Of a stretch of DNA of 12,078 nt, positions 1 through 12,078 are shown piece after piece. A program made the position numbers and the translations under genes. Within the stretch, counting starts at the first letter, position 1, and each line of letters begins with the position of its first letter. The DNA is from a virus: the UHGV virus genome UHGV-0261881, one strand, 5' to 3'. The notes under the pieces are model-generated. The model made no database searches and was not told the DNA's origin. It worked only from the letters and a program-made list of their open reading frames with translations.

Positions 1-246
1 GCGGGTAGGTGTACCAAAAATAATGGCGTCGTAATCGGCCAGTTCTTGCGGGGTTGCAACCGGTGCAGTTTGCGTTTTACCGCCTGCTTTTTCAAATAAT
101 TGCGGCGGCATGGTTTCCGGTACACGCTTAACGACAACTTCTGCGCCATCCACTTTGCTTGCACCCTCAGCGACTGCGCGTGCCATCGTTTCAATATGTC
201 CGTACATGGAATAATAAAGCACTAGTATTCTTGCCTTAACACTCAT
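1..246 (-). CDS. wrbA: NAD(P)H:quinone oxidoreductase WrbA, N-terminal 82 codons (3' end runs off the window); first 8 codons supplied by the inserted element
   Basis: Minus-strand translation from ATG at 246-244 gives [82 protein letters not shown]. From VLYYSMYGH onward this matches the WrbA N-terminus as I recall it ([31 protein letters not shown]...). SD aggaga sits 8 nt upstream on the minus strand (plus 254-259). Confidence 0.92.
216..225. other. attL junction (host wrbA side | element side), crossover within or next to AAAGCAC
   Basis: Sequence ggaataatAAAGCAC|tagtattc: left part matches wrbA, right part does not. The same AAAGCAC is found at the right junction. Confidence 0.7.
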
Positions 247-297
247 ATCATTGTTCTCCTGTTCAATGAACCACTTAGATAAGCATAGTCCGAAGAT

Positions 298-1941
298 ATG
301 AAGCTGCTAGTGACATACATCAGGTGGAGTACTAAAGAGCAAGACTCAGGAGACTCCTTAAGACGGCAAACAAACCTCATTGATGCTTTCTACTCTAAGC
401 ACAAAAATGATTATTACCTTCTTCCTGCTCACAGATACGTTGATAAGGGTAAATCTGGTTTTCACCAGCAACATAAGAATCAAGGTTCTGACTTCAGACG
501 TATGTTTGAAAATGTTATGTCTGGGGCTATTCCAGAAGGTTCCTTGATTGTTGTAGAGAACTTTGACCGCTTCAGTAGGGCTGATATCGACACAGCTATA
601 GATGATGTCAGGCAGATACTGAGGAAAGGAGTCTCTATACTGACTCTGGGAGATGGTGAACTCTACGACAAATCAGCATTAACAGACCCTGTGAAGTTGA
701 TTAAGCACATCATCATAGCTGAGCGAGCACATCAGGAATCTCTTGTTAAACAAAAGCGTATAGCTCAGGTCTGGAACCATAAAACACAGCTTGCAAGAGA
801 ACTTAAGAAGCCTATGGGTAAGCAAGCCCCCGGATGGTTAGAGCTATCAGATGATGGTTCACACTACATCGTTGATGAAGATAAAGCGTCACTGGTGAAT
901 ATCATCTATGACAAGCGTCTTTCTGGTATGTCGATGTTTGCTATCTGCAAATGGCTAAACGAACAAGGTTACCCGACCATTAATCAGCGTAAGGTCAGAA
1001 TATCCAAGACTAAGAAACCTGATGGTAACTGGTCAGCATTAAGCGTTAAACACATCCTGACTTCACGAAGTGTATTAGGTTACCTTCCCGCTAAGATTTC
1101 TACAGAAGACCGTAAAACAGTGTTACGTGAAGAAATTGAAGGGTTCTATCCTCAGATTGTCACAGACTCTAAGTTTTACGCTGTACAGCAACTGTTAGAG
1201 GAAACAGGGAAGGGGAAAACATCCAGCGGTGAACACTGGCTATATGTGAACATACTGAAGGGGCTTATCCGTTGTAAGTGTGGGCTTGTAATGACTCCTA
1301 CAGGGATACGTAAACCCGTTTATCAAGGTACTTACCGTTGCAATGGTAATAAGGAGTCCCGTTGTAGCTACGGTACAGTGTCCAGAAAGTTACTTGATAC
1401 ACAGCTTTGTAGTCGTCTGTTTAGCAAACTGTCACAGCTACACGATGAAGCTACCGATACAGCTAAATTAGATGAACTGCAACGCAGACTAAACACCGTT
1501 GATAGTGAACTGGAAAAACTCACTGAGACGCTGATACAGCTTCCTAACATCACTCAGATTCAAGAAGCACTACGGGTTAAACAGGAAGAAAAAGATGAAC
1601 TGATAGTTCAGTTATCACGAGAAAAGGCGAGGGTAAAATCTGTATCAAGCTTGGATTTAAGCGGTCTTGATATGGAGTCTGTAGAGGGGAGAACTGAAGC
1701 CCAGATTATTATTAAGCGTTTGGTGAAAGAGATTGTTGTTTCTGGTAATGAAAAGCTGGTGGATATATATCTTCACAATGGAAATATGATTCGTGGTTTT
1801 CCTCTTGATGGTAAAGATGACCACACCTTAACGCTTGAAGAAGCAACCGATGAGATGCAGTCATTAGATGATATGCTTATTTTTGGTGAACCAGTAACAA
1901 GGATTTATCCTGCTGGTGATATGGAAGAGGTGGACGCTTAG
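298..1941 (+). CDS. Large serine recombinase (integrase), 547 aa
   Basis: N-terminal catalytic motifs YIRWSTKEQ (catalytic Ser), [15 protein letters not shown] and ERAHQESL. Cys-rich stretch IRCKCG...[14 protein letters not shown] consistent with a recombinase zinc ribbon. Coiled-coil-like C-terminal region ([21 protein letters not shown]). ATG start at 298. Position next to the att junction. Confidence 0.88.
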
Positions 1942-1944
1942 GAA

Positions 1945-1960
1945 TTGGTATTGTTACCAA
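1945..1960. terminator. Hairpin between convergent genes (TTGGTA-ttgt-TACCAA), possible bidirectional terminator without a clear U-tract
   Basis: Perfect 6-bp inverted repeat with a 4-nt loop, exactly filling the gap between the integrase stop (1939-1941) and the minus-strand gene stop (1961-1963). Confidence 0.3.
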
Positions 1961-2734
1961 TCAATAAGTGCCCTTCTTATTCGGATTCACACTAAATTTC
2001 CGTAAAGCATTACCCGACTTAAGCACTTTTGAAGCCTGCTCATTAGCTGAGGCTGTGAAGGTGCTTACACCATCTTTCACCGTGACATTTTTAGAGCAAT
2101 TGCTACGGACCCTTAGCGCTTCATCAGATAGCTCAGATGCTGAGTAGCTATACAGTTCCTGACACATCAACATAGGTGCGTTATTGCGTTCAGTAGTCAC
2201 GTTACCCGCATTCTTCTTAGAAGTTGCGCCACCATCATTTGTGGTAGCGGCCTTTCCAGTTGCAGCAGAGATATCAGTCTGACCAACAACAGCTTTAAAG
2301 TTAATTTCCTGAAAAGTTAGCTGGATTCTTAGACCATTTGAAATACCAACATCTTTAGATGCTTTAAAGCTTGTAATAATGGAATCATCAATTTTAATTC
2401 CGTCCTTACAGATAACAGAAATAATTTGCTTCTGGTCACGCCAGCTTTCAAGAGTGTCAATGAAGTTTTCTACTAATTGACCCTGACGAGTTAATAATAA
2501 GCTTCCTTCATAGCCAACTACAACGACACCACTAATAGTGATTGTTCTGGGTGCTCTTTGCACATTATCTGTGACGGTTTGCCCTGATTGCATGTTCTGT
2601 GTAGTCACCTGCATAGGGCTATCAAATTCCATGTTTTCAGTTGCTGATAAGGTTAAGAAGGCATCTACATTGTCTCTTAAGTGGAAATAGATGCCATCTT
2701 TGCCACTGTAACGAATCTGATTAGAGTAAATCAT
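1961..2734 (-). CDS. Hypothetical protein, 257 aa; weak resemblance to a phage distal-tail/structural protein given its position after the tape-measure-like gene
   Basis: Long ORF. The track's TTG start at 2755 is replaced here by the ATG at 2734-2732, which has a strong SD (aaggag, 7 nt upstream on the minus strand). Beta-rich-looking sequence ([15 protein letters not shown]). No catalytic motif recognised. Confidence 0.6.
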
Positions 2735-2813
2735 TAAATTCTCCTTTGATTTCAAAGGCTTAGTGTATTTTAATCATTTTTAACCAAGCCTTTGATATAT
2801 AAGTATTTTCTCT

Positions 2814-2895
2814 GTTAAGCGTGAGCTACGTAAATTCTATTTTTCAGTGCAGGTATTAACTTTGCTTTATTCACGTAGCATTCGACTATTCATAG
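2814..2895 (-). promoter_or_regulatory. Promoter-like cassette, copy A, upstream of the 257-aa gene
   Basis: About 37 bp nearly identical to copy B (taagcgtgagctacgtaaattctatttttcagtg). On the minus strand it reads ...ctgaaaaaTAGAATttacgtagc..., a -10-like TAGAAT with no good -35. Dyad arms GCTACGTAAAT (2825-2835) and ATTCACGTAGC (2869-2879) flank and overlap the -10. Confidence 0.45.
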
Positions 2896-2968
2896 TTGAA
2901 TCGTCATACTAGATAAAGATTAATAGATTGCCATGTGTGGCAATAAATATTAGTAGTTCTAACATTGT

Positions 2969-5044
2969 TTATTCCTCTGGGTAAGCTGAGCTAATCAAGG
3001 TATCTTCCTGCATACGATTAATATGCGATGTGGTTCTTTCATCAATAACCTTTCCATCAAGTACCGTCTGAGTTGTGATATTGATTGTCTGAGGCTGAAT
3101 GTTTACTGACGGCTTGATAACCTTTAAATCTTGTGTGAATGTTTCCACTCGACCTTTCAGATTATTTAATGCTTCAGGTGAAAACTGTGGAACATCTTTT
3201 GATTTGCCCTGAACCATAGCCCATAAAACAGCGGCTAAAGAGTTCATGTCACCAGACAATGCTTGGTCTGTAGGTTCCACCTTTGACCTTACAACTTTGT
3301 CAATTGGATTATCTGACTTACTCATCTGACGTTCATAGAACGGTTTAACAATGGAGTTAATCACATCAGTTGCCATACCGACAATCATTACTTTGGTAAT
3401 TGCATCAGCTACAGATAATTTTCCTTTACCACCTTCAACACTACCGGAACGTGAATTAATTCTTCCTGCTGCTGTATTTGCTACATTTCCAAGCGTGGAA
3501 ATAGCCCTAATTAAGCTCCAGATGCCACCTACAGCACCAATACCAGACCTTACAGCAACAATACCAGCAAGTCCCTTTAATGCACTTAACAGGCCATTTG
3601 CGATACCATCAGCTACAGCTTTTTGAGTGTCATTTAATTCTCTGTAAGCAAGGGTCACTCTGTCAAAGAATCCCTGCACTCGGTAGCTAATCGTGGTTAA
3701 ATCATCAATACCGTTTGACATACTTTTCATCAAGTCGCCAAAATGTTCACCAAGATTTTTAGATTGCCCACCTAGCGAATTAAGTAAATTAGTCAGTGAC
3801 CTTGTAAAGTCTGTTAAACCTTCCTGTGAACCGTCGAACATTAAGGCCAGATTATTATTCCATGAATTAGAAAGGCGGCCTAACTGCGTCTGAGTAGAGT
3901 TAATAATCTTTTCCCATCCACCAGCTTTATCAATCATCCTTCCCATTTCAGCGGATACTTTAGGAAGAACATCTTTAGAAAGAACTTTACCGTCTTTCAT
4001 AGCCTTGTCTAATTCTTCTGTAGTCATCCCAAGGCTTCTGGCAAATAACTGGAAAGCACCTGCCATTCTGTCACCTAATTGACCACGTAGCTCTTCAGCC
4101 TGAATCTTCCCTTTAGAAGCCATCTGCTCGAAAGCTTTCAGAATCCCGTTAATTTCATCAGTACTTAAACCCATTAATCTGGATGTGCCAATCACATTAC
4201 TAAATAAGGATTCTTTCTGGCCTGCATCCATATCACCAGCACCAGCGGAAAACTTAGCAAAACTGCTTAATGTTTCAATCTGGTCAACACCAGTATTATT
4301 AGCAAGATTCTTAACAAATTCTGTAGCTCGTTTAGCACCTTCATCACCTAAAACGAATTGTGCCGCTCGTTGTGATGCTTCTTTTTTCAGACCAACCTCC
4401 ATAATCTTCCTGTAAGCTTCTAAGGCTGTCTGAAAACTATAAATGGCTGTACCTGCTTTGATTGCACTTGTAGCTAATACATCCAGACCATTCGAAGCAT
4501 TTTCACTGTGATTATTTTTGCTGGTGGTCTTGTTAAACTTAGAAAGTGTTTCACGAAGAGACTGATTTAATTTTGCTAACTCACGATTAAAAGCTTCGTT
4601 TCCAAGTGTCTTGGATTTACTACTTAATGCGTAAAACTGACTCTTAATGTATTTCTCGACAATTGGGTTAAGACCTTTCAGCTTGCTCATATTCGCTGAA
4701 TAAGCTGCTGTGATTGCTCTGTTTCCGCTAATTCGTGGTTGCCTTGATTGTTTTGGAGGATTAACAGTGTCATTAAATCTGGTGGCAAACTGAAATGCTT
4801 TTGTGCTTCTTGCTCTCTGTTCAATCTTGTCAAAGGTCTTATTAAACTTCCTTTCAAGCTGCCCTAAAGAACTTGTCAGATTGCTGTCAAGTTGCTTGGT
4901 ATCGACCTTAAACGCTCTATTCAAATTGCGTTCAATTCTTTGTGCTGACTGCAAAGCTGCCTTTTCAACTCTTTGCAAGCCCTTAATAACGTTTTCACTG
5001 AAACTAAGTTCAACGATAAAACTATCAACTGTGAATTTGCTCAT
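2969..5044 (-). CDS. Tape-measure-like protein (phage tail length tape measure domain), 691 aa
   Basis: Central block GLSTDEINGILKAFEQMASKGKIQAEELRGQLGDRMAGAFQLFARSLGMTTEELDKAMKDGKV resembles the tape-measure core domain. Gly/Ala-rich hydrophobic segment (GLLSALKGLAGIVAVRSGIGAVGGIWSLIRAISTLG) and coiled-coil-like N-terminus are typical of tape measure proteins. ATG start with SD agaggtg. Confidence 0.65.
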   Translation of the reverse strand: MSKFTVDSFIVELSFSENVIKGLQRVEKAALQSAQRIERNLNRAFKVDTKQLDSNLTSSLGQLERKFNKTFDKIEQRARSTKAFQFATRFNDTVNPPKQSRQPRISGNRAITAAYSANMSKLKGLNPIVEKYIKSQFYALSSKSKTLGNEAFNRELAKLNQSLRETLSKFNKTTSKNNHSENASNGLDVLATSAIKAGTAIYSFQTALEAYRKIMEVGLKKEASQRAAQFVLGDEGAKRATEFVKNLANNTGVDQIETLSSFAKFSAGAGDMDAGQKESLFSNVIGTSRLMGLSTDEINGILKAFEQMASKGKIQAEELRGQLGDRMAGAFQLFARSLGMTTEELDKAMKDGKVLSKDVLPKVSAEMGRMIDKAGGWEKIINSTQTQLGRLSNSWNNNLALMFDGSQEGLTDFTRSLTNLLNSLGGQSKNLGEHFGDLMKSMSNGIDDLTTISYRVQGFFDRVTLAYRELNDTQKAVADGIANGLLSALKGLAGIVAVRSGIGAVGGIWSLIRAISTLGNVANTAAGRINSRSGSVEGGKGKLSVADAITKVMIVGMATDVINSIVKPFYERQMSKSDNPIDKVVRSKVEPTDQALSGDMNSLAAVLWAMVQGKSKDVPQFSPEALNNLKGRVETFTQDLKVIKPSVNIQPQTINITTQTVLDGKVIDERTTSHINRMQEDTLISSAYPEE

Positions 5045-5057
5045 TCATGTTTCACCT

Positions 5058-5140
5058 CTTTAAGCGTGAGCTACGTAAATTCTATTTTTCAGTGTGGATA
5101 TTAGCTTTACAGATTTCATGTAGCACACATAGGATTCGAT
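5058..5140 (-). promoter_or_regulatory. Promoter-like cassette, copy B, immediately upstream of the tape-measure-like gene
   Basis: Same core as copy A. -10-like TAGAAT on the minus strand (plus 5079-5084) sits about 35 nt upstream of the ATG at 5044. Lies between an intrinsic terminator (5160-5201) and the gene start. Confidence 0.5.
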
Positions 5141-5159
5141 AGAAGACTATCTCATATAC

Positions 5160-5201
5160 AAAAAAGGGAGAAACTACCGATATCACTCGATAATCTCTCC
5201 C
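5160..5201 (-). terminator. Rho-independent terminator after the 67-aa gene
   Basis: Minus strand reads GGGAGAgattatcgagtgatatcggtagttTCTCCC followed by TTTTTT: 6-bp GC-rich stem plus U-tract, about 25 nt downstream of the stop at 5227. Confidence 0.6.
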
Positions 5202-5226
5202 GTTGATTTTCACCCAACCAATCTTT

Positions 5227-5430
5227 TTACCTAACCAGATAATAATTACCATCTTCACCGACAATCTGACAATCACTTGGTAATTTATCAAGACACCATT
5301 TAGCGATTCTTCTGATTCTGTTATTTTGCTTAGAGGTGGATGATTTGATTCGTTTTGGTTTGTTGGGTTGTTCTTTCAGTCGTTCACTAATTGCCTTGAT
5401 GAGTTCATAGCGTTCTGTTAAATCAATCAT
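5227..5430 (-). CDS. Hypothetical small basic protein, 67 aa
   Basis: ATG start with a strong SD (aaggaggtg). N-terminus MIDLTERYEL is paralogous to the upstream 102-aa protein (MSDLTERDKR). Confidence 0.55.
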   Translation of the reverse strand: MIDLTERYELIKAISERLKEQPNKPKRIKSSTSKQNNRIRRIAKWCLDKLPSDCQIVGEDGNYYLVR

Positions 5431-5455
5431 TCACCACCTCCTTTTTAATTCGATT

Positions 5456-5764
5456 TTAATCTAAGTAGTGTATACACTCGACACCGCGTTCATTCTTTTG
5501 AATTTCATAACGTAGTGAAAGACCAGTTTGATAATACACAGTATCAAGCTTATTTATCTTATCCTTGAGTTCGATAAGAAGTCGCGTTAAATCATCCCGA
5601 CCATCACACTTTAGTTCGGCAAGAGGCTTTTCTTCCATACGACCAATAAGATATTCAGTGACCTCCTGAATATCACCAAGAGTCATTTTAATTTCATTGA
5701 ACCTATCTTCAAAAGGCTCCATCACCCATTTCATTCTTTTATCGCGTTCTGTTAAATCACTCAT
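5456..5764 (-). CDS. Hypothetical small acidic protein, 102 aa
   Basis: ATG start. Its start overlaps the stop region of the upstream 234-aa gene (5764 versus 5773), suggesting translational coupling. Shares the M-x-DLTER N-terminus with the 67-aa protein. Confidence 0.6.
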   Translation of the reverse strand: MSDLTERDKRMKWVMEPFEDRFNEIKMTLGDIQEVTEYLIGRMEEKPLAELKCDGRDDLTRLLIELKDKINKLDTVYYQTGLSLRYEIQKNERGVECIHYLD

Positions 5765-5772
5765 TATTCACC

Positions 5773-6477
5773 TCAAACAGCCTTGCTAAATTCTCGTGGA
5801 ACACTCAGAAAATCATTGAAGCTGATAATCTGTGCCAACTCTTGACGGTACTCCTTAGCCAGCGCTTGATGGTCACTAATCAGCTTAGCCAGTCTTGATT
5901 TCAGCAATTTAATCTCATTTTCTCTTGCTTTCATCAGTTTCTCTTTGGCAATTTCTTCAAGCTCAGCTTGTGATTTATCAGCAACAATTAGAGACAGTTG
6001 ATGTGGCGCTCTGATGGCCCTTTCCGTACGAATAACCCTTTGACCTTCTGGTAAATCTGCAATCACTTTACCAATCTCTACAGGGTCATACCCCCAACCG
6101 TCACGGTCTAGTCGAGAGAAATAAGCATAAGGATTGGTTTGAAGCTCCATCAAAATAGCCATTTCGTCGATTTCGTCTTCAAGCTTGGACTGAATTTTCT
6201 CGTAAACACTTCTCATTGCTTCTTGAGAGTCTTTAATAGCTTGGAAATATCGGCGTTGCAGCTTCAGTTTCAAATCAAGCTCACATTTCTCATTCATCGA
6301 AAAATCAATTTCAACTCTTGGAATCTCGAGTGGTTCTGGTGGAATATATGGACCTTTATTTACTTCGTGTGATTCCCGCCAAGCTCTATCAAAAGATTCA
6401 CGCAAAGTTAATTCGTGAATATCAAGTGCACTTGGTCTGTTCTCAACAATCATTTCATTTTCATCACGGATAGCCAT
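5773..6477 (-). CDS. Hypothetical protein, 234 aa, charged and coiled-coil-rich
   Basis: Long ORF with ATG start. Its SD (agaagagga) lies inside the 3' arm of an 11-bp hairpin. No motif recognised. Confidence 0.6.
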   Translation of the reverse strand: MAIRDENEMIVENRPSALDIHELTLRESFDRAWRESHEVNKGPYIPPEPLEIPRVEIDFSMNEKCELDLKLKLQRRYFQAIKDSQEAMRSVYEKIQSKLEDEIDEMAILMELQTNPYAYFSRLDRDGWGYDPVEIGKVIADLPEGQRVIRTERAIRAPHQLSLIVADKSQAELEEIAKEKLMKARENEIKLLKSRLAKLISDHQALAKEYRQELAQIISFNDFLSVPREFSKAV

Positions 6478-6487
6478 TAATATTTTT

Positions 6488-6556
6488 CCTCTTCTAAGAT
6501 AATTTACGTTTCAGTTTTTAAAAAGCACACCTGACAACCTACGAACTTAGAAGAGG
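6488..6556 (-). promoter_or_regulatory. 5'-UTR hairpin sequestering the SD of the 234-aa gene
   Basis: Perfect 11-bp inverted repeat CCTCTTCTAAG (6488-6498) / CTTAGAAGAGG (6546-6556) with a 47-nt loop. On the minus-strand mRNA the 3' arm contains the SD, 10 nt before the ATG. Confidence 0.5.
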
Positions 6557-6594
6557 CTTAAAAGGCGTTTGCCAAGTATGCTTTTTAAAAGCTG

Positions 6595-6631
6595 AAAAAA
6601 GCCCTAGATAACTAAAACGCTATAAAGGGCT
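6595..6631 (-). terminator. Rho-independent terminator ending the upstream minus-strand operon
   Basis: Minus strand reads AGCCCTttatagcgttttagttatctAGGGCT followed by TTTTT(T). Confidence 0.5.
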
Positions 6632-6949
6632 AAGGTGAAGAAATTAAAACATCTAAAGGATTCAATAACGAATGAACAAGAGTACTTTTCGAGATGACCT
6701 CTCAGGTTATATAAGAGGTCATGTAGCGAAAAGCATTGCACCTTTCCAAATCAGAATATCCATCCATCGGATTATTGAAAATATGATTTTAGGAAGAGTT
6801 GCTCTTCCCTATAATTAAAATTATGTCATACTTAAGGTTATTTGTCAACAGCCTTTTAACAGATTGGTAACATCAATTTCTATTTACTGTGTTGCCTACC
6901 CAGCAACCAACAAATAAGCCAAGCAACGTCCAAGCAATTATTAAGCCCA

Positions 6950-7279
6950 TTAGTGAACCCTCACAGAATCCGTAACCAAAATATTGTCGCTGTACAGGAT
7001 TGTCACAGCACCTTTCAAAAATTGCTCTGGGGAAATACTGTATTTGTTCGTTTGCTCGATAACCAATCTTTTCATGTTGCTGTCTTTAATTGGTAGCATC
7101 ATTCGAGGCTCGTTAAACTCCACCGACTGAATAAAGTCAGAGATGCTTTCCGCATTATCAGTCATTAACTCTAACAACTTATCAAAGTCAACGCTAACAC
7201 CTACATCAGCGAAAGCCTGAATCATCATGGCGGTGTCGGTATCAATAAAAATCTGTAGTGGGAAGTTTAATTCTCTCAT
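6950..7279 (-). CDS. Hypothetical protein, 109 aa
   Basis: ATG start with SD aaggag. Lies immediately downstream (minus strand) of structured repeat copy 1. Confidence 0.55.
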   Translation of the reverse strand: MRELNFPLQIFIDTDTAMMIQAFADVGVSVDFDKLLELMTDNAESISDFIQSVEFNEPRMMLPIKDSNMKRLVIEQTNKYSISPEQFLKGAVTILYSDNILVTDSVRVH

Positions 7280-7304
7280 TTCTTAAAATCTCCTTTTTAC
7301 CAGA

Positions 7305-7430
7305 CCTCCTCAATCGCTCTGTAACGAGCTAAACAGTCTTTTTCAGGGGTAGCCTGTACAGTGGTATTACCCACCCTAAAATAAGGTAGTTTTTTGCGTT
7401 AGAATGCGATTGAGAGCGTCTGAGAAGCTG
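7305..7430 (+). repeat. Structured inverted-terminus repeat (SIR), copy 1, between the HNH-like gene and the 109-aa gene
   Basis: Aligns base-for-base in the same order with copy 2 (same orientation) and with the reverse complement of copy 3. Shared blocks GCTCTGTAACGAG, CAGGGGTAG, TACCCACCCTAAAATAA, GTTAGAATGCG and AGAGCGTCTGAGAAGCT. Termini are mutually complementary (CTCAATCGC / GCGATTGAG). Confidence 0.75.
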
Positions 7431-7435
7431 TTTTT

Positions 7436-7723
7436 CTAATTTCTCTTAAAGTCTCGGACTTGCATAAGATTTTTTGGTCTGGTATCGGCTCTGTTACCAT
7501 TTCGATGGATAATTTGCTTGTTGGATTGATAGCCATGATAAAGGAACCAGACAACATATTTCACGTAGAAAGTATATCGGCCTATATTAAATGTTTTGTT
7601 GCCGTAGTCGTCGGTATTTATCGTGACTGACTCTCCATCAGACCAGCACAGGGAATCACTGGATTCATCATAGATAAGGTGTTCTGTAAAATATCGTCTA
7701 ACATCTTCATGCCAAGGTTTCAT
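7436..7723 (-). CDS. Small HNH-family endonuclease-like protein, 95 aa
   Basis: C-terminal YVKYVVWFLYHGYQSNKQIIHRNGNRADTRPKNLMQV resembles the HNH motif of phage-type HNH nucleases (consensus-like ...W..hnG...IDHINGN..DNR..NLR). ATG start overlaps the upstream gene by 4 nt. Confidence 0.55.
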   Translation of the reverse strand: MKPWHEDVRRYFTEHLIYDESSDSLCWSDGESVTINTDDYGNKTFNIGRYTFYVKYVVWFLYHGYQSNKQIIHRNGNRADTRPKNLMQVRDFKRN

Positions 7724-7935
7724 AAAACCTCCTCACCCCAATAACCTAATTCAATCTTGTGACGCTCAAACCATTCCGGTTTAACTGCTGTTTTCAGTAC
7801 TTCATTTGGGTCAATGGCTTTAATGAAAATATCTTTTGAGTTATGGATGTCACCGAATCCGTTTCCTTTAATCAGGAGGTCGGAGATGTAGCGAATCATT
7901 TTATCTGTGTGGTATTCAAAGGTAACGCATAGCAT
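7720..7935 (-). CDS. Hypothetical protein, 71 aa
   Basis: ATG start overlapping the upstream stop (TAATG). Part of a tightly coupled operon. Confidence 0.5.
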   Translation of the reverse strand: MLCVTFEYHTDKMIRYISDLLIKGNGFGDIHNSKDIFIKAIDPNEVLKTAVKPEWFERHKIELGYWGEEVL

Positions 7936-8213
7936 TAAACCTCCATCGCTAACTTGTGAATCTTAAGACTCAATAGACGGGCAATATCAATTTTAAAGCC
8001 GTTAAGTGCCTTCAAAGTATCTAAAGCGTCCTGACTAATTCGGATGTGCTTACGACCTTTAGAGACTGGATATTTAAGTAAATCCGACTCAGTGACCTCT
8101 TTAGCAATTGCAAGTTGCATAATAGTTTGATGAGGTAAGTTAGTTGCTTGTTTAATTCTGGTAAGCTCGTTAAAAGCTTCCTCTGAAATACGGGTTAATG
8201 TGTGTTTATTCAT
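7935..8213 (-). CDS. Putative ribbon-helix-helix (RHH)-like DNA-binding protein, 92 aa
   Basis: N-terminus KHTLTRISEEAFNELTRIKQATNLPHQTIMQLAIAKE fits a strand-helix-helix pattern like CopG/Arc-type RHH. A second similar pattern (HIRISQDALDTLKALNGFKIDIARLL) follows. Stop of the upstream gene directly abuts its ATG. Confidence 0.4.
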   Translation of the reverse strand: MNKHTLTRISEEAFNELTRIKQATNLPHQTIMQLAIAKEVTESDLLKYPVSKGRKHIRISQDALDTLKALNGFKIDIARLLSLKIHKLAMEV

Positions 8214-8768
8214 TTAAAATTCCTCTGTAACTAAATACGGGTCAAACTCGAAATCTGGTTCACTAATCGTAAGGCTGATATTGCCCACTTCCGCATGATG
8301 ATTAATTGTCTCAATAACTTTCATGCAAATAGTGGCTAAGTTAGCGCAATATTTATCGCTTGGTAATTCATAGCTAAGTCTGGTTGCTTGTCTTTGAAGA
8401 TGGCTCGTCACTGTGCTTGAGCTAATCTTATCAAGGCTTCGAAGCAAATAGAAAATCTTCCGGTGATAGTTATCCCTTCCAAAGCTGCGACAAGTGCCGA
8501 TAATTACATCTTCAATTCGTGATGGTAGTTGCTCGTAAGAATCAAAGCCCATCAAGAAAGTTTTTAAAGTATTTTCTTTTTCTTTGCGTGTTGGCATATA
8601 TCTGTCTCGTGGCGTAATGCTACGAATGACCGCTTCAATGTTCTTACGTTCGGATTTGCTAAAGGTTGGGACTTCGTAGCTGGTGGGGGTGTCTGTGTAG
8701 CTGTAACCGTTGCTTCTGTTTCTTGCTTTGCTCTCTTCAAGAAACTTTTGAAAATCTTTGTCGTTCAT
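8214..8768 (-). CDS. Hypothetical protein, 184 aa, first gene of the operon
   Basis: ATG start 43 nt downstream of a consensus-like promoter. No motif recognised. Confidence 0.6.
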   Translation of the reverse strand: MNDKDFQKFLEESKARNRSNGYSYTDTPTSYEVPTFSKSERKNIEAVIRSITPRDRYMPTRKEKENTLKTFLMGFDSYEQLPSRIEDVIIGTCRSFGRDNYHRKIFYLLRSLDKISSSTVTSHLQRQATRLSYELPSDKYCANLATICMKVIETINHHAEVGNISLTISEPDFEFDPYLVTEEF

Positions 8769-8817
8769 TCATAAGCTGGCCCTTATAATTGTTAATTTCC
8801 TGTTAACTATATATACA

Positions 8818-8846
8818 ATCTTAGCAGTTTCAAAGGCTAATGTCAA
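8818..8846 (-). promoter_or_regulatory. Sigma70-type promoter of the minus-strand four-gene operon
   Basis: Minus strand reads TTGACA (plus 8846-8841), a 17-nt spacer, then TAAGAT (plus 8823-8818). Confidence 0.6.
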
Positions 8847-8854
8847 GCATTTTT

Positions 8855-8884
8855 TTAACATTTGATTAACATTTATGGTATAAT
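8855..8884 (+). promoter_or_regulatory. Extended -10 promoter firing rightward into the ORF-poor region
   Basis: TTAACA (8855-8860), 18-nt spacer, TGgTATAAT (8876-8884). Divergent from the operon promoter. Confidence 0.55.
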
Positions 8885-8917
8885 GGTTTTATGAGAGAGG
8901 GAAAATATAAAGGCGTG

Positions 8918-8975
8918 GCTATGAGGTTTATTCGATAAACCGAATCAACTATGAGAATGGTCACATGGTTATTGC
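8918..8975 (+). repeat. Direct repeat Rep2, copy A (contains cgaatcaactatgag)
   Basis: Homologous to 10493-10592 in the same orientation (ctatgagRtt ... cgaatcaactatgag ... aatggttatt). Confidence 0.6.
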
Positions 8976-8986
8976 ATTGCACACAG

Positions 8987-9082
8987 GCCTCTTCAATCGC
9001 TCTGTAACGAGTTAAATGGCCTCTTCAGGTCAACTCATAAGGTCAGGTACTTTTTGTATCAGAATGCGATTGAGAGCGTCTT
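8987..9082 (+). repeat. Structured repeat (SIR), copy 2 (shorter), forming the leader of a small ORF
   Basis: Shares the 5' block cttcaatcGCTCTGTAACGAG and 3' block AGAATGCGATTGAGAGCGTCT with copy 1. The central part differs. Terminal 8-bp complementarity TCAATCGC / GCGATTGA. Confidence 0.7.
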
Positions 9083-9095
9083 ACAAGGAAAACTA

Positions 9096-9272
9096 ATGGT
9101 AAACCTCCCTCCTGAGCTGGGGTCACCTGATGTTTGGGCTGGTGGAGGTGTGGGTCTGATTGCAGGCCTGCTACTTCGCTACGTCCTCGTCAGAGTGCTT
9201 GTTGTCTTTAAACTGTTCGGTCGTACATGGACGCTTGACCTTAAGGATAATGACCACACAGACCCCCGTTAA
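9096..9272 (+). CDS. Putative small membrane protein, 58 aa
   Basis: ATG at 9096 with SD aagga 7 nt upstream. Translation MVNLPPELGSPDVWAGGGVGLIAGLLLRYVLVRVLVVFKLFGRTWTLDLKDNDHTDPR has one hydrophobic helix and a charged tail. Weak hairpin (CCCCT/AGGGG, 9286-9309) downstream. Confidence 0.35.
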   Translation: MVNLPPELGSPDVWAGGGVGLIAGLLLRYVLVRVLVVFKLFGRTWTLDLKDNDHTDPR

Positions 9273-9391
9273 ACCCCCTTCAAAACCCCTATACCATCTC
9301 GTACAGGGGTATCTTTAGCATTTTGTGCTATCTATTAAAAAATAGCTTGACAGAACCGGAAAGCTGTATTTATCAAGTATTCACCTCTCTG

Positions 9392-9564
9392 ACAGTGATT
9401 TCTAAAAATACTTATTTTTCAATGAGTTGTAATCACCCATATATAGAGAACTGACAAGTCTCTTCACAGAGAACTCTGTAACCTTAACAGTAATTTCTAA
9501 AAATACTTATTTTTCAATGAGTTGTAATCACCCAATATATAAGGCTGTCCAGTACCTTCACAGA
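9392..9564 (+). repeat. Tandem direct repeat, two units of ~80 bp with a 95-bp period
   Basis: Units 9392-9470 and 9487-9564 share a ~55-bp near-identical core (acagtRatttctaaaaatacttatttttcaatgagttgtaatcacccatatata) and a downstream cttcacaga. A GCTCTGTAAC-like motif lies between the units (9474-9482). Confidence 0.7.
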
Positions 9565-10375
9565 TGACTTCAAGCCTTCTTAGCTATCCACTAAGCGGGA
9601 GAAGAGCGATAACCCCAGAGAGGGAAGCTCCCTTCTAATTGGTATTGTTATGAGGATGCTTCATCCGAATCATCTACCAATCCCTAAACCGACTCTCTTA
9701 ACCAGCCCTTTACGTTATTCGTTCACAGTGTTGATAAGTGGTTTTGCCCTCTGTTTCTGTTATCATCGGGCTTACCTTATCAGGGCTTTGAAATGCCCTG
9801 TAACTCCCCTCTTAACGGGAGAGAAAGAACATAGTGACCCCAAGCGAAGCGCCCCTCTAAAAAGATTTTTTAGCTACTTTGTTTAAAAGCACATCAAACG
9901 ATACATTTTATTGATTTAGGTCAAAGACAAAAGCATTGACAAAATGGTAAGATTGTTCACATGACCTTACTTAACAGATTCTTAAGAGCTTTGAAACGGC
10001 CTATTTAACAAGGTCACTACCTACGGTTCTTCGTTTTCCTTCTTTCTAGGTAGTCATCTGTTAAGAGTTTTTCAGTCTTACTCTTAAGAATCACTGTTAA
10101 GATGATACTCTCCCCTTCGGGTTATATCGTATCTCTTCTCCCGTTAAACACCCCTTCCTAACTATCTACATAATCACTTCTAAGAATCTTACAAGGTAAT
10201 ATCCAGACCTCTTATAGTTGACCTGATACAGAAGTTTTACAGGCATACTCTCTAGGTTACTAATCGGGTGCTATCAAGGGCCACTAAACGAGAGAGGGGA
10301 TATGTGACCATAGGGGAACCCCTCCTGTTAAAAAGGCCACTTAGAAGTCTGAGACTTTAGTAAAATCTGTGAATA

Positions 10376-10492
10376 TAGCTTCTCAGGCGCTCTGTAACGC
10401 ATTCTAAGCGATTTTACCCCTTTATTTTAAGGTGGGTGGTACATCCCTATAGACTACCCCTAAAAATGGGGTTAAAACTCGCTACAGAGCTT
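10376..10492 (-). repeat. Structured repeat (SIR), copy 3, inverted relative to copies 1 and 2
   Basis: The reverse complement of 10371-10500 aligns along its length with copy 1 (blocks GCTCTGTAGCGAG, AGGGGTAG, TACCACCCACCTTAAAATAA, GCTTAGAATGCG, AGAGCGCCTGAGAAGCT). Termini are complementary (GCTCTGTAGCG / CGTTACAGAGC). Confidence 0.7.
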
Positions 10493-10592
10493 TCTATGAG
10501 ATTAGCTTCATGAAGTAATTCATTACTGAATCACCTAATCGAATCAACTATGAGGCTTGGTAAGATTGTGCAAAATCTGTACAATGGTTATT
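10493..10592 (+). repeat. Direct repeat Rep2, copy B
   Basis: See Rep2 copy A. Here it abuts SIR copy 3. Confidence 0.55.
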
Positions 10593-10850
10593 TGGCTTCT
10601 GAAAATTTTTACAAAAATCATAGTAGCCCTCTTTGAATCTCATCTTCCCCGAATCTTCAAAAATATCTGACAGATGTCTGTAGCTGCTAAGTACCCGTCA
10701 CACCAGCTATGTGACCCCCTTTGCAAAAAAGCCAAATATCTATTGACTTTCTATGTGAATTGCTATAAAGGCATCTATCTAGACCTTTAACTGTATAAAT
10801 ACACATGACAACAAACGCCCGTTAAGTGTCTATATAAAAAGGTAGCTGTA

Positions 10851-10895
10851 GCTATAGACAACAATTGTGATAATTGATTTAATGGCTATAGACAA
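10851..10895 (+). promoter_or_regulatory. Two direct GCTATAGACAA repeats upstream of the small recombinase gene (candidate operator or binding sites)
   Basis: Identical 11-mers at 10851-10861 and 10885-10895 (34-bp spacing). Related TATATAG-like motifs at 10828-10836 and 10914-10922. Confidence 0.4.
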
Positions 10896-10935
10896 GCAAG
10901 ACAGACCTTTGTTGACTATATAGAGAGATAAGAAC

Positions 10936-11505
10936 ATGCGTACATTCCTTTATGCTCGTGTATCAGTTGATGACCTCACCACACAAAACCAAGTAGAAGC
11001 TGTTAAACGTGCTGGTTATGAAGTCAAACCTTCACGAGTGATTGAGGAAGTTATTAGTGGTGCTACACCAGCTATGGACAGACCACAATTTGTAAAGCTG
11101 GTGGATAAGCTGGAAGAAGGTGATTGTCTTGTAGTGACCAAGATTGACCGCTTAGGAAGGGATAACATTGATGTACAGAAGACCGTCACAATGTTACTGG
11201 ATATGGGTGTGAAGCTAATTTGTTTAGACCTGCCTGTAAAAGACCTTTCAAGTGCTGAAGGTAAACTTATCCTTCAACTATTCAGTACCTTTGCAGAGTT
11301 TGAACTTAACCGCATCAGAGAGCGAACCAGAGAGGGCTTAGAACGAGCTAAAGCACAAGGTAAGGTGTTGGGTCGTCCTGTAGCTAAAAACACTACAGAG
11401 GCCGTTTTAGAGCATAAGGCAAAGGGATTGTCACAAAGTCAGGTTGCAAAGCTTCTGAATCTCTCTGTGAGAACGGTTAGCCGTCACTGGACAAAGACAC
11501 TGTAA
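10936..11505 (+). CDS. Small serine recombinase (resolvase/invertase family), 189 aa
   Basis: Motifs YARVS (catalytic Ser), VVTKIDRLGRD and ERTREGLERAKAQGKVLGRP, plus a C-terminal helix-turn-helix (GLSQSQVAKLLNLSVRTVSRH). ATG start. Confidence 0.88.
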   Translation: MRTFLYARVSVDDLTTQNQVEAVKRAGYEVKPSRVIEEVISGATPAMDRPQFVKLVDKLEEGDCLVVTKIDRLGRDNIDVQKTVTMLLDMGVKLICLDLPVKDLSSAEGKLILQLFSTFAEFELNRIRERTREGLERAKAQGKVLGRPVAKNTTEAVLEHKAKGLSQSQVAKLLNLSVRTVSRHWTKTL

Positions 11506-11526
11506 GAAACTTAGTAGCATCTTCAT

Positions 11527-11550
11527 AGCCTCCTTCATGGGGGCTTTTTT
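11527..11550 (+). terminator. Rho-independent terminator after the small recombinase gene
   Basis: AGCCTCC-ttcat-GGGGGCT stem (one G-U pair) followed by TTTTTT, about 22 nt after the stop. Confidence 0.6.
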
Positions 11551-11558
11551 GTATCCAC

Positions 11559-11626
11559 TCTCTAAGCGTGTCCTACGCAAAATCTCCTGAACACTTACCC
11601 ACCCTCAGAAATAACTTTCACGTAAG
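11559..11626. repeat. Diverged third copy of the promoter-like cassette (copy C), containing a TTACCCACCCT block shared with the SIR repeats
   Basis: ctctaagcgtgtcctacgcaaaatctc resembles the cassette A/B core. The loop contains ttacccaccctcagaaataa, similar to TACCCACCCTAAAATAA in SIR copy 1. 3' arm ctttcacgtaag. Confidence 0.45.
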
Positions 11627-11937
11627 AAACTGTTAAGCAGCTTGATAGTTATTCTGTGTGACCAAACATCTATATATCGTTATATAGTCCTGTATATAGC
11701 ACTTTTCTAGGAGTCGAGAGAGGGACGACTAACACGATACAGTTTACCCTGAAAAGAGACTTCACAGATTCTCTATATATTTCAATAAGTTAGGCTAAAA
11801 AGAGACTATACCGATACTGCATAGAATCTGTGTAAAACTGCTTAGATACTTGGGAAAATGCCTTTAAATTGAATAGGGATTCACCTGATATTGTCCTGTT
11901 ATTAACAGGTAGTTGAATGTACGTGTTTAGCTATGTA

Positions 11938-11947
11938 AAAGCACCAG
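11938..11947. other. attR junction (element side | host wrbA side)
   Basis: Sequence ctatgtaaAAAGCAC|cagaactttagccat: the right part is the reverse complement of the native wrbA start ATGGCTAAAGTTCTGGTGC. Confidence 0.7.
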
Positions 11948-12078
11948 AACTTTAGCCATTTCTAACCACTCCTCGTGTTATCTCTATTCCGTAGCGATTC
12001 GCTACCACTTATTTAAAGATAAGACGTCCTTTTCAGAGTGCAAATTTCACAACCACTTATTTGATTTATAACAACTTT
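11945..12078 (-). other. wrbA: Displaced native wrbA start codon (11959-11957), first codons, SD and native upstream region
   Basis: Minus strand reads gaggagtggttagaaATGGCTAAAGTTCTGGTGC..., giving MAKVLV, the native WrbA N-terminus. It is separated from the rest of wrbA (1-222) by the element. Confidence 0.8.

Follow-up and report, generated by a model that had tools for sequence, protein, structure and literature searches.

RNA structures that mask a ribosome-binding site are a familiar principle of gene control. In the preQ1-II, SAM-II and rpsO/S15 leaders, the SD is sequestered by a loop-to-tail (H-type) pseudoknot whose second helix blocks 30S binding. The lambda N leader carries an RNase III hairpin, and its inhibitory contacts are made via the hairpin base and the N-nut complex. 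In phage Mu, a stem over the SD or start codon of mom silences this late, potentially harmful gene until Com binds an adjacent hairpin. Fold-back inhibition in IS10 and IS50 silences read-through transcripts by means of an upstream complement of the ribosome-binding site. In the immI operon of P1, which includes c4, the anti-SD and its target are part of the same constitutive transcript (PMC8198154, citing Citron and Schuster 1990).

The window analyzed here is the whole 12,078-nt stretch of DNA of the virus genome UHGV-0261881. It includes an ORF-poor stretch (6478–6949) ahead of a gene coding for a 234-aa protein, and the leader of this gene lies within it. The features of the leader and the gene, following the predicted transcript from 5′ to 3′, are:

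6820–6848, minus strand: near-consensus sigma-70 promoter, TTGACA (6848–6843), 17-nt spacer, TG (6828–6827), CATAAT (6825–6820)
6791–6809, minus strand: hairpin H1, GGGAAGAG-CAA-CUCUUCCU, at the leader's predicted 5′ end (-10.4 kcal/mol, z = -4.5)
6694–6722, minus strand: mid-leader hairpin, AUGACCUCU / AGAGGUCAU, a 9/9 repeat that gives an 11-pair stem on folding
6595–6631, minus strand: terminator-like hairpin T (AGCCCU..AGGGCU, inner AUAGC/GUUAU) with U6 at 6600–6595 (-15.0 kcal/mol, z = -5.4)
6569–6597, minus strand: A1, 5′ arm of the long helix A (UUUCAGCUUUUAAAAAGCAUACUUGGCAA), from the repeat search and covariation
6546–6556, minus strand: B1, anti-SD segment CCUCUUCUAAG, in the mRNA the 5′ arm of the hairpin of the first-pass annotation
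6509–6537, minus strand: A2, 3′ arm of helix A (UUGUCAGGUGUGCUUUUUAAAAACUGAAA), which fills most of what had been supposed to be a 47-nt loop
6488–6498, minus strand: B2, CUUAGAAGAGG, the SD-bearing arm of helix B, 10 nt past A2 and 10 nt ahead of the start codon
5773–6477, minus strand: gene for the 234-aa helical protein, the first of the operon, an ORF with highly divergent alleles

The first-pass annotation of the window had described an 11-bp perfect hairpin with a 47-nt loop that sequesters the ribosome-binding site of the 234-aa gene. A repeat search found the two arms as claimed at 6488–6498 and 6546–6556 (CCTCTTCTAAG / CTTAGAAGAGG), 11/11 complementary and 47 nt apart. On the minus-strand mRNA, B1 is followed by the 47 nt, B2, 10 nt and the AUG at 6477 that starts the 234-aa ORF. 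The SD was correctly placed in the 3′ arm of the mRNA, as B2 (6498–6488) includes the GAGG core and its end lies 10 nt ahead of the A of the ATG. The B2 sequence is present only once in the window. Folding of the isolated 77-nt B hairpin gave -22.9 kcal/mol (z = -3.65). Taken alone, the 11-bp repeat is within chance expectation: dinucleotide-shuffled windows contained on average 0.47 perfect 11-bp inverted repeats with loops of 3–100 nt, and at least one was present in 29% of these shuffles. Its significance derives from its placement on the SD and from its conservation with covariation.

A second, larger inverted repeat was found at 6509–6537 / 6569–6597, with 29-nt arms separated by 31 nt. 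As minus-strand RNA, 28 of the 29 positions are paired (25 Watson–Crick and 3 G·U pairs) and the remaining one is C·A. The two repeats interleave in the 5′-to-3′ order A1 (6597–6569), 12 nt, B1 (6556–6546), 8 nt, A2 (6537–6509), 10 nt, B2 (6498–6488). Therefore, the anti-SD segment B1 is located in the 31-nt apical loop of A1:A2. The spacing proposed for helix B stood, and the idea of a simple hairpin did not, since its “loop” houses one arm of a stronger, conserved 28/29-bp helix. The isolated A hairpin (96 nt) folded with -36.1 kcal/mol (z = -7.4). A1:A2 also has the length (at least ~20 bp) and the scarcity of mismatches expected of an RNase III substrate. An intrinsic-terminator U-run was found neither after A2, which ends at 6509 and is followed by CGUAAAUUAU, nor after B2, which is followed by AAAAAUAUUA.

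This arrangement shares elements with each of the known systems. As in preQ1-II, SAM-II and rpsO, a hairpin loop pairs with an SD-bearing 3′ tail; unlike in these leaders, the first helix, with 28 bp and a 31-nt loop, is far larger, and neither a ligand pocket nor an autoregulatory protein is evident. The lambda N leader has in common with it a strong phage promoter, a long near-perfect helix right before the ribosome-binding site of the first gene, and a structure that would limit translation until processed, but in the present case the partner of the SD is a distinct 11-nt stretch of the loop. A structure over the SD would gate translation of the gene, as it does in Mu mom, although neither a Com-like zinc-finger protein nor a binding site could be identified and the elements are interleaved instead of forming two adjacent hairpins. 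The upstream segment complementary to the ribosome-binding site is reminiscent of IS10 and IS50; there, the element's own promoter must lie between the arms, whereas none was found here and the strong promoter precedes both. ROSE and FourU elements also pair the SD within the 5′ UTR, but helix B consists of 11 perfect pairs, 5 of them G-C, and places neither U-rich nor non-canonical pairs across from the SD. The c4 RNA of P1/P7 and the CI RNA of P4 are similar in layout: the promoter is constitutive, the leader carries the complement of the first gene's ribosome-binding site, and the sequence classes described below could be specificities. In the present leaders, the antisense segment B1 lies upstream of the matching B2 on one RNA, and this order is conserved. 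Unlike c4 and P4 CI, they have no likeness to the Rfam C4 family, no second target site and no evidence of RNase P processing, and action in cis is sufficient.

The whole window was compared to Rfam 15 and 0 matches were obtained at the gathering threshold. With E values up to 10, the region 6400–7000 matched only the long hairpins of plant miRNA precursors (best 35.5 bits vs. a 90-bit threshold) besides noise, and the S15 leader model scored 14 bits vs. a threshold of 39.5 bits. The module belongs to none of these kinds of system: it has no Rfam match, its helix A exceeds by far those of the riboswitch pseudoknots, and neither an internal promoter nor a second target or ligand pocket was seen. 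The loop-to-tail pseudoknots and the gated phage leaders are the closest in principle, and c4 is close by layout only.

The promoter at 6848–6820 matches the consensus at 11 of 12 positions and has an extended -10; this score is the highest in the window, where it is shared, and the site is the best on the minus strand. The arrangement TTGACA-17-TGnCATAAT was kept in 96 related loci, while in the others the -10 is GATGAT or the site lies beyond the extraction window. Its use in the cell is predicted from the sequence, with transcription expected to start at about 6813–6810 and to yield a leader of roughly 335 nt. A consensus scan for minus-strand sites of the sigma-70 type detected none with at least 9/12 matches between 6820 and 6477. 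The first-pass annotation had considered a transcript that starts inside the hairpin and lacks its 5′ arm. The sequence lends no support to such a start, and the only good promoter is upstream of both arms. The hairpin is thus expected to be in the mRNA, because the promoter precedes both arms and there is no site of at least 9/12 between them.

The 5′ two-thirds of the leader hold further hairpins. H1 has other sequences in the relatives that still pair (GAGAGAA..UUCUCUC, GGGAGAG..CUCUCU). The mid-leader hairpin (-14.4 kcal/mol, z = -4.7) occurs in three sequence versions, each of them pairing, and sits right after a 20-nt motif, GAAAGGUGCAAUGCUUUUCG. This motif (6736–6755, minus strand) did not differ among the first nine loci, whose collection had not relied on it, and later served as the search seed; it includes an SD-like AAGGUG followed by AUG, and the ORF after it is not conserved. 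Besides H1, the mid-leader hairpin and T, the consensus fold of this part of the leader includes only invariant or weakly supported long-range pairs. In hairpin T, the stem is directly followed by the U-run, as in an intrinsic terminator, and this U-run overlaps the 5′ end of arm A1. The GCCCU/AGGGC stem was kept in all relatives. Termination at T is a prediction and may vary, because the U-run is interrupted (CUAUUCA) in some relatives. The longer leaders L010, L012, L014 and L122 (e.g., L122 6200–6300) have an additional terminator-like hairpin, GCCCUAA..UUAGGGC plus a U-run, in which the U-run doubles as the 5′ arm of the next A-U-rich hairpin (CUUUAAGAG..CUCUUAAAG). The extra module is laid out like T followed by helix A, which suggests a module duplication. 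Antitermination of the lambda Q type was considered for the combination of promoter, leader and terminators and was set aside as speculative; downstream of the start site there is no convincing -10-like pause element.

Protein-based and motif-based searches identified 122 related loci from viral contigs, metagenomes and genomes. The loci found through the motif all share one exact 20-mer, which is an ascertainment bias. The comparison set consisted of 80 distinct sequences spanning from hairpin T to the start codon, all of them collinear and with no sign of inversion. Of 5426 complete E. coli genomes, 472 (~9%) carried the leader, always in the chromosome, and it was annotated in none of them; about 45 E. 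coli genomes had two or three copies. On a MAFFT alignment, the 25 pairs of the helix A core had 93.6% of their cells paired, and 14 of these pairs had changed on both sides. When helices A and B were considered jointly, 90.9% of the cells were paired as opposed to 39–56% when the partners were slid by 1–3 columns, and none of 500 shuffles reached the paired fraction or the covariation score of the real alignment. G·U cells numbered 242 and A·C cells 72. This excess of G·U points to selection on the minus-strand RNA and not on the DNA, as it would be expected only in that case. The cell counts overstate the number of independent covariation events, because the sequences form about five lineages.

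Column-based counting on the MAFFT alignment underrates helix B (86% paired), with two of the sequence classes, B and E, placed in a shifted register. Because of this misregistration, helix B was assessed by a register-free test. All 80 leaders keep 8–13 contiguous pairs (median 12) between the A loop and the 3′ tail, and this pairing covers the SD. Shuffled tails matched the observed length of B in at most 2.4% of cases for most classes, and in 9–14% for the classes with helices of 8–9 bp. There were 22 distinct pairs of B arm sequences, which were grouped into at least five classes:

Class A (this window): CCUCUUCUAAG / CUUAGAAGAGG
Class B: UUCACCUCU / AGAGGUGAA, helices of 8–9 bp, individually weak
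Class C: UCUUCUAAGUGU / ACACUUAGAGGA
Class D: CUUCUAAGUGUG / CACACUUAGAGG
Class E: AUUCACCUC / GAGGUGAAU

The register of helix B shifts along the SD from class to class, and the GAGG is covered in all of them. One-sided substitutions in B are mostly transitions that leave a G·U pair (the common UCUCUUC variant, L021, L042, L007 and L016); the only variants that weaken the helix are L065, with a C·A mismatch, and L083, with a 1-nt deletion. The comparison showed that both predicted helices are conserved and co-vary as minus-strand RNA. Pairing over the SD, the core of the earlier proposal, is thus a feature of the 80 leaders and of at least five co-varying classes, but it is one half of a two-helix leader.

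Both helices are under selection; therefore, the question is whether they co-exist or alternate. Folding of the leader, which had been suggested as a check on the hairpin, gave a divided answer: helix B is stable as an isolated hairpin, but longer transcripts choose A over B. In nested folds of leader segments of 146 and 351 nt, A was formed every time and B was not. The energies of the helices alone are -31.6 kcal/mol for A and -14.3 kcal/mol for B. In the ensemble folded into A, the bases 6495–6492 of the SD arm are ~90% unpaired and those of the GAGG core (6491–6488) are 29–60% unpaired. At 25, 30, 37 and 42 °C, nested folds with A were ahead of those with B by 4.6–5.8 kcal/mol and the ranking did not change. 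Control by temperature, one of the mechanisms named in the first-pass annotation, is not favored by this constant preference, nor by the 11 Watson–Crick pairs of B or by the lack of a ROSE or FourU match. Control by upstream translation fared no better: no conserved leader ORF ends near the arms, and the only minus-strand ORFs in the leader (45 and 21 aa), which would be the candidates for translational coupling, are broken by indels in relatives.

Nested folding considers A or B, and the interleaved order also allows a pseudoknot of the kind found in SD-sequestering operators, with bases of the A loop paired to the SD-bearing 3′ tail; the complementarity for such pairing was found in 80 of 80 leaders. 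The reach of the linkers was compared to the length of helix A, and this crude, upper-bound geometry forbade co-existence in 0 of the 80. A Dirks–Pierce-style estimate that ignores sterics placed the pseudoknot at about -46 to -48 kcal/mol vs. -36 to -38 kcal/mol for the best nested fold. In the tightest leaders (e.g., one with a 29-bp helix A and a 2-nt linker from A2 to B2), the linkers would need to be nearly fully extended, and helix A may have to open at its A-U-rich base. These models suggest that the two helices can co-exist. A pseudoknot is favored because the geometry permits co-existence and the estimated energy is below that of the best nested fold.

We consider it reasonably probable, on the basis of these models, that a loop-to-tail pseudoknot keeps translation of the 234-aa gene low. 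The strong promoter at 6848–6820 would yield the structured leader, and the transcripts that extend past hairpin T would first fold, co-transcriptionally, the 28-bp helix A, whose apical loop would present the 11-nt anti-SD B1. B2, with the SD, would emerge 10 nt past helix A and be captured by the loop as soon as it is made, and the resulting pseudoknot between loop and 3′ tail would occlude the ribosome-binding site. The predicted outcome is that the first, hypervariable gene is poorly translated by default although its promoter is near-consensus, with hairpin T and the pseudoknot jointly restraining the output of the first protein of a strongly promoted operon. The device could be a fixed damper, or it could be a lock opened by, for example, RNase III cutting helix A or an RNA-binding factor from a helper phage or the island. 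A protein or RNA trigger, also contemplated in the first-pass annotation, is possible. If this model holds, the leader would be a new cis-regulatory RNA motif for annotation, it would provide a handle on how a strongly promoted island operon is silenced, and its natural compensatory variants could serve for testing pseudoknot-based translational control. This module, which places an anti-SD in the loop that caps a 28-bp helix, interleaves it with the SD and is backed by covariation, is absent from Rfam and unannotated in all genomes checked.

A different relationship between the helices would be a two-state switch, in which A and B are mutually exclusive, formation of A keeps the anti-SD in a loop and leaves the SD free (ON), and B represents the OFF state. 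The A1-B1-A2-B2 order of the arms suits such a switch, and forced nested folds gave either A (-38.0 kcal/mol) or B (-33.3 kcal/mol), not both, with A ahead by 4.7 kcal/mol. The shortest linkers between A2 and B2 (2–4 nt) would also strain a full helix A sterically when B is formed. We regard the switch as unlikely, given that A always wins both co-transcriptionally and thermodynamically, so B would be useful for a minority of RNAs only, and yet it is kept in 80 of 80 leaders. As a corollary, B would form only in RNAs without A1, e.g., after a cleavage between 6569 and 6556, or in those in which A1 is sequestered. A transcript that starts past A1 does fold into the B hairpin (-24.9 kcal/mol), but no promoter-like site was found between A1 and B1, and this part of the proposal seems equally unlikely. 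Moreover, the crude geometry permits co-existence throughout and the pseudoknot estimate is the lowest of the energies.

The layout shared with c4 raises the alternative that the RNA acts in trans. Hairpin A would be excised as a stable small RNA in the style of P1 c4 or P4 CI, a reading that we find doubtful. Consistent with it, the hairpin that presents the anti-SD in its apical loop is long and stable and derives from the target's own constitutive transcript, the B1/B2 classes are discrete and co-vary, and the duplex formed in trans would be stable (-19.5 kcal/mol). Against it, no match to Rfam C4 or another family was found, no processing signals were identified, and pairing in cis is the simpler account of the same data. 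It is improbable, too, that the loop segment B1 binds ribosome-binding sites on other transcripts in an immunity-like manner with the classes as heteroimmunity groups, because B2 has only one copy in the window. As a second target in trans, the ribosome-binding site of the tape-measure gene, GAGGUGAA, was considered and rejected: it has the same sequence in every leader class and shows no covariation with B1. In its fullest form, this proposal would make hairpin A the self-encoded immunity RNA of an undescribed family of satellite-like islands that bear a tape-measure gene, which we also hold to be improbable. If it were true, the part of the leader from promoter to terminator would be an abundant RNA of ~215 nt in the resting state. 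The pseudoknot acting in cis remains our preferred reading, and two further alternatives were weighed against it.

Helix A could mainly be a site for RNase III processing or for stabilization, as in the lambda N leader and T7 mRNAs, with B of little regulatory effect. With 28 of 29 positions paired the helix is long enough, and it lies directly upstream of the ribosome-binding site, but cleavage is not predictable from sequence, and the coordinated changes of B1 and B2 over five classes and the G·U-preserving substitutions would be left unexplained, so that we consider this very unlikely. An element acting at the level of DNA, such as the operator of a dimeric regulator or a site for an island serine recombinase, might be imagined for inverted repeats in an island with two serine recombinases and a highly conserved promoter spacer and leader, but it has hardly any probability given the G·U excess, which makes sense only for minus-strand RNA, the arms that change freely while staying complementary (the opposite of a protein-recognition site), and the collinearity of the 80 leaders.

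The ATG at 6477 as the start codon of the 234-aa ORF is backed by the relatives, in which the N-terminus M(A/S)IRDE is kept and the sequence upstream of it diverges in a non-coding fashion. Searches of PHROGs, Pfam, PADLOC, NCBIfam and PDB sequences with the 234-aa protein returned nothing but a sub-threshold hit to Pfam DUF7384. Among 5.8 billion proteins, its homologues, all of them annotated as “hypothetical”, come only from E. coli, Shigella and Citrobacter. An AlphaFold model was all-helical and of low confidence (pLDDT 55). The gene (5773–6477) and the EC25 allele (L122 6451–7161) are homologous with 26% identity, while the next gene, which codes for a 102-aa protein, is 95% identical. 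The blastn junctions fall at ~6483, between the SD and the ATG, and leaders of the same class precede widely differing alleles of the first gene. In these sequence comparisons, the leader behaves like a single module that extends through the SD, and the pattern suggests diversifying selection or cassette exchange on the 234-aa gene.

The window is essentially one chromosomal island of ~12 kb, which in E. coli WP9-S17-ESBL-11 (NZ_AP022287) splits a DUF72 (yecE-like) gene. The island corresponds to 1–12078 of the window and to 15010–26719 of L009, and related island sequence was detected in 448–472 of the 5426 complete E. coli genomes. The module thus resides in a mobile island of ~9% of the complete E. 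coli genomes, and the island is apparently undescribed in the searched literature: topic and sequence-string searches found no description of the island or its leader. A blastn search of sequenced phages with a 1.6-kb region gave no match, and a search of viral contigs with the conserved 102-aa protein retrieved no islands. Besides small ORFs, an HNH endonuclease and a small serine recombinase, the island encodes:

298–1941, plus strand: large serine recombinase
1961–2755, minus strand: Dit-like tail protein
2969–5044, minus strand: tape-measure protein

The island looks satellite-like, because the tape-measure and Dit-like genes are present but there are no capsid, terminase or tail-tube genes.

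Several other observations were made in the window. A strong intrinsic terminator with a 15-bp stem and T6 (5160–5201, minus strand) separates a 67-aa ORF from the tape-measure gene. It is immediately followed by TTGTATATGAGATAGTCTTCTATCGAA, which is similar to the promoter-proximal portion of alternative leaders such as L022, and in some relatives the T-run of this terminator directly abuts the tape-measure ribosome-binding site. This ribosome-binding site, GCUUAAAGAGGUGAA, is partly complementary to CCACCUCUAAGC within the upstream 67-aa ORF (5326–5337 / 5050–5064, minus strand). The pairing consists of 4 + 7 pairs with a 2-nt bulge, at a distance of ~270 nt, and could be due to chance or be a coupling device. 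Upstream of the leader promoter, a hydrophobic mini-ORF of 25 aa (MGLIIAWTLLGLFVGCWVGNTVNRN) occupies 6873–6950 on the minus strand, and its ATG overlaps the stop codon of a 109-aa gene (TAATG). The relatives have a mini-ORF that is also hydrophobic and differs in sequence (EC25: MELVIICFVLIGMIAGASIKV).

In the region 8769–10935, ~2.1 kb, all ORFs fall short of 80 aa, with 72 and 78 aa for the longest. A tandem repeat of ~95 bp (9392–9439 / 9487–9534, 98% identical, continuing to 9569) and a perfect 12-bp inverted repeat (9977–9988 / 10081–10092) lie within this region, which may serve in replication or regulation. It also has divergent near-consensus promoters at 8806–8884.
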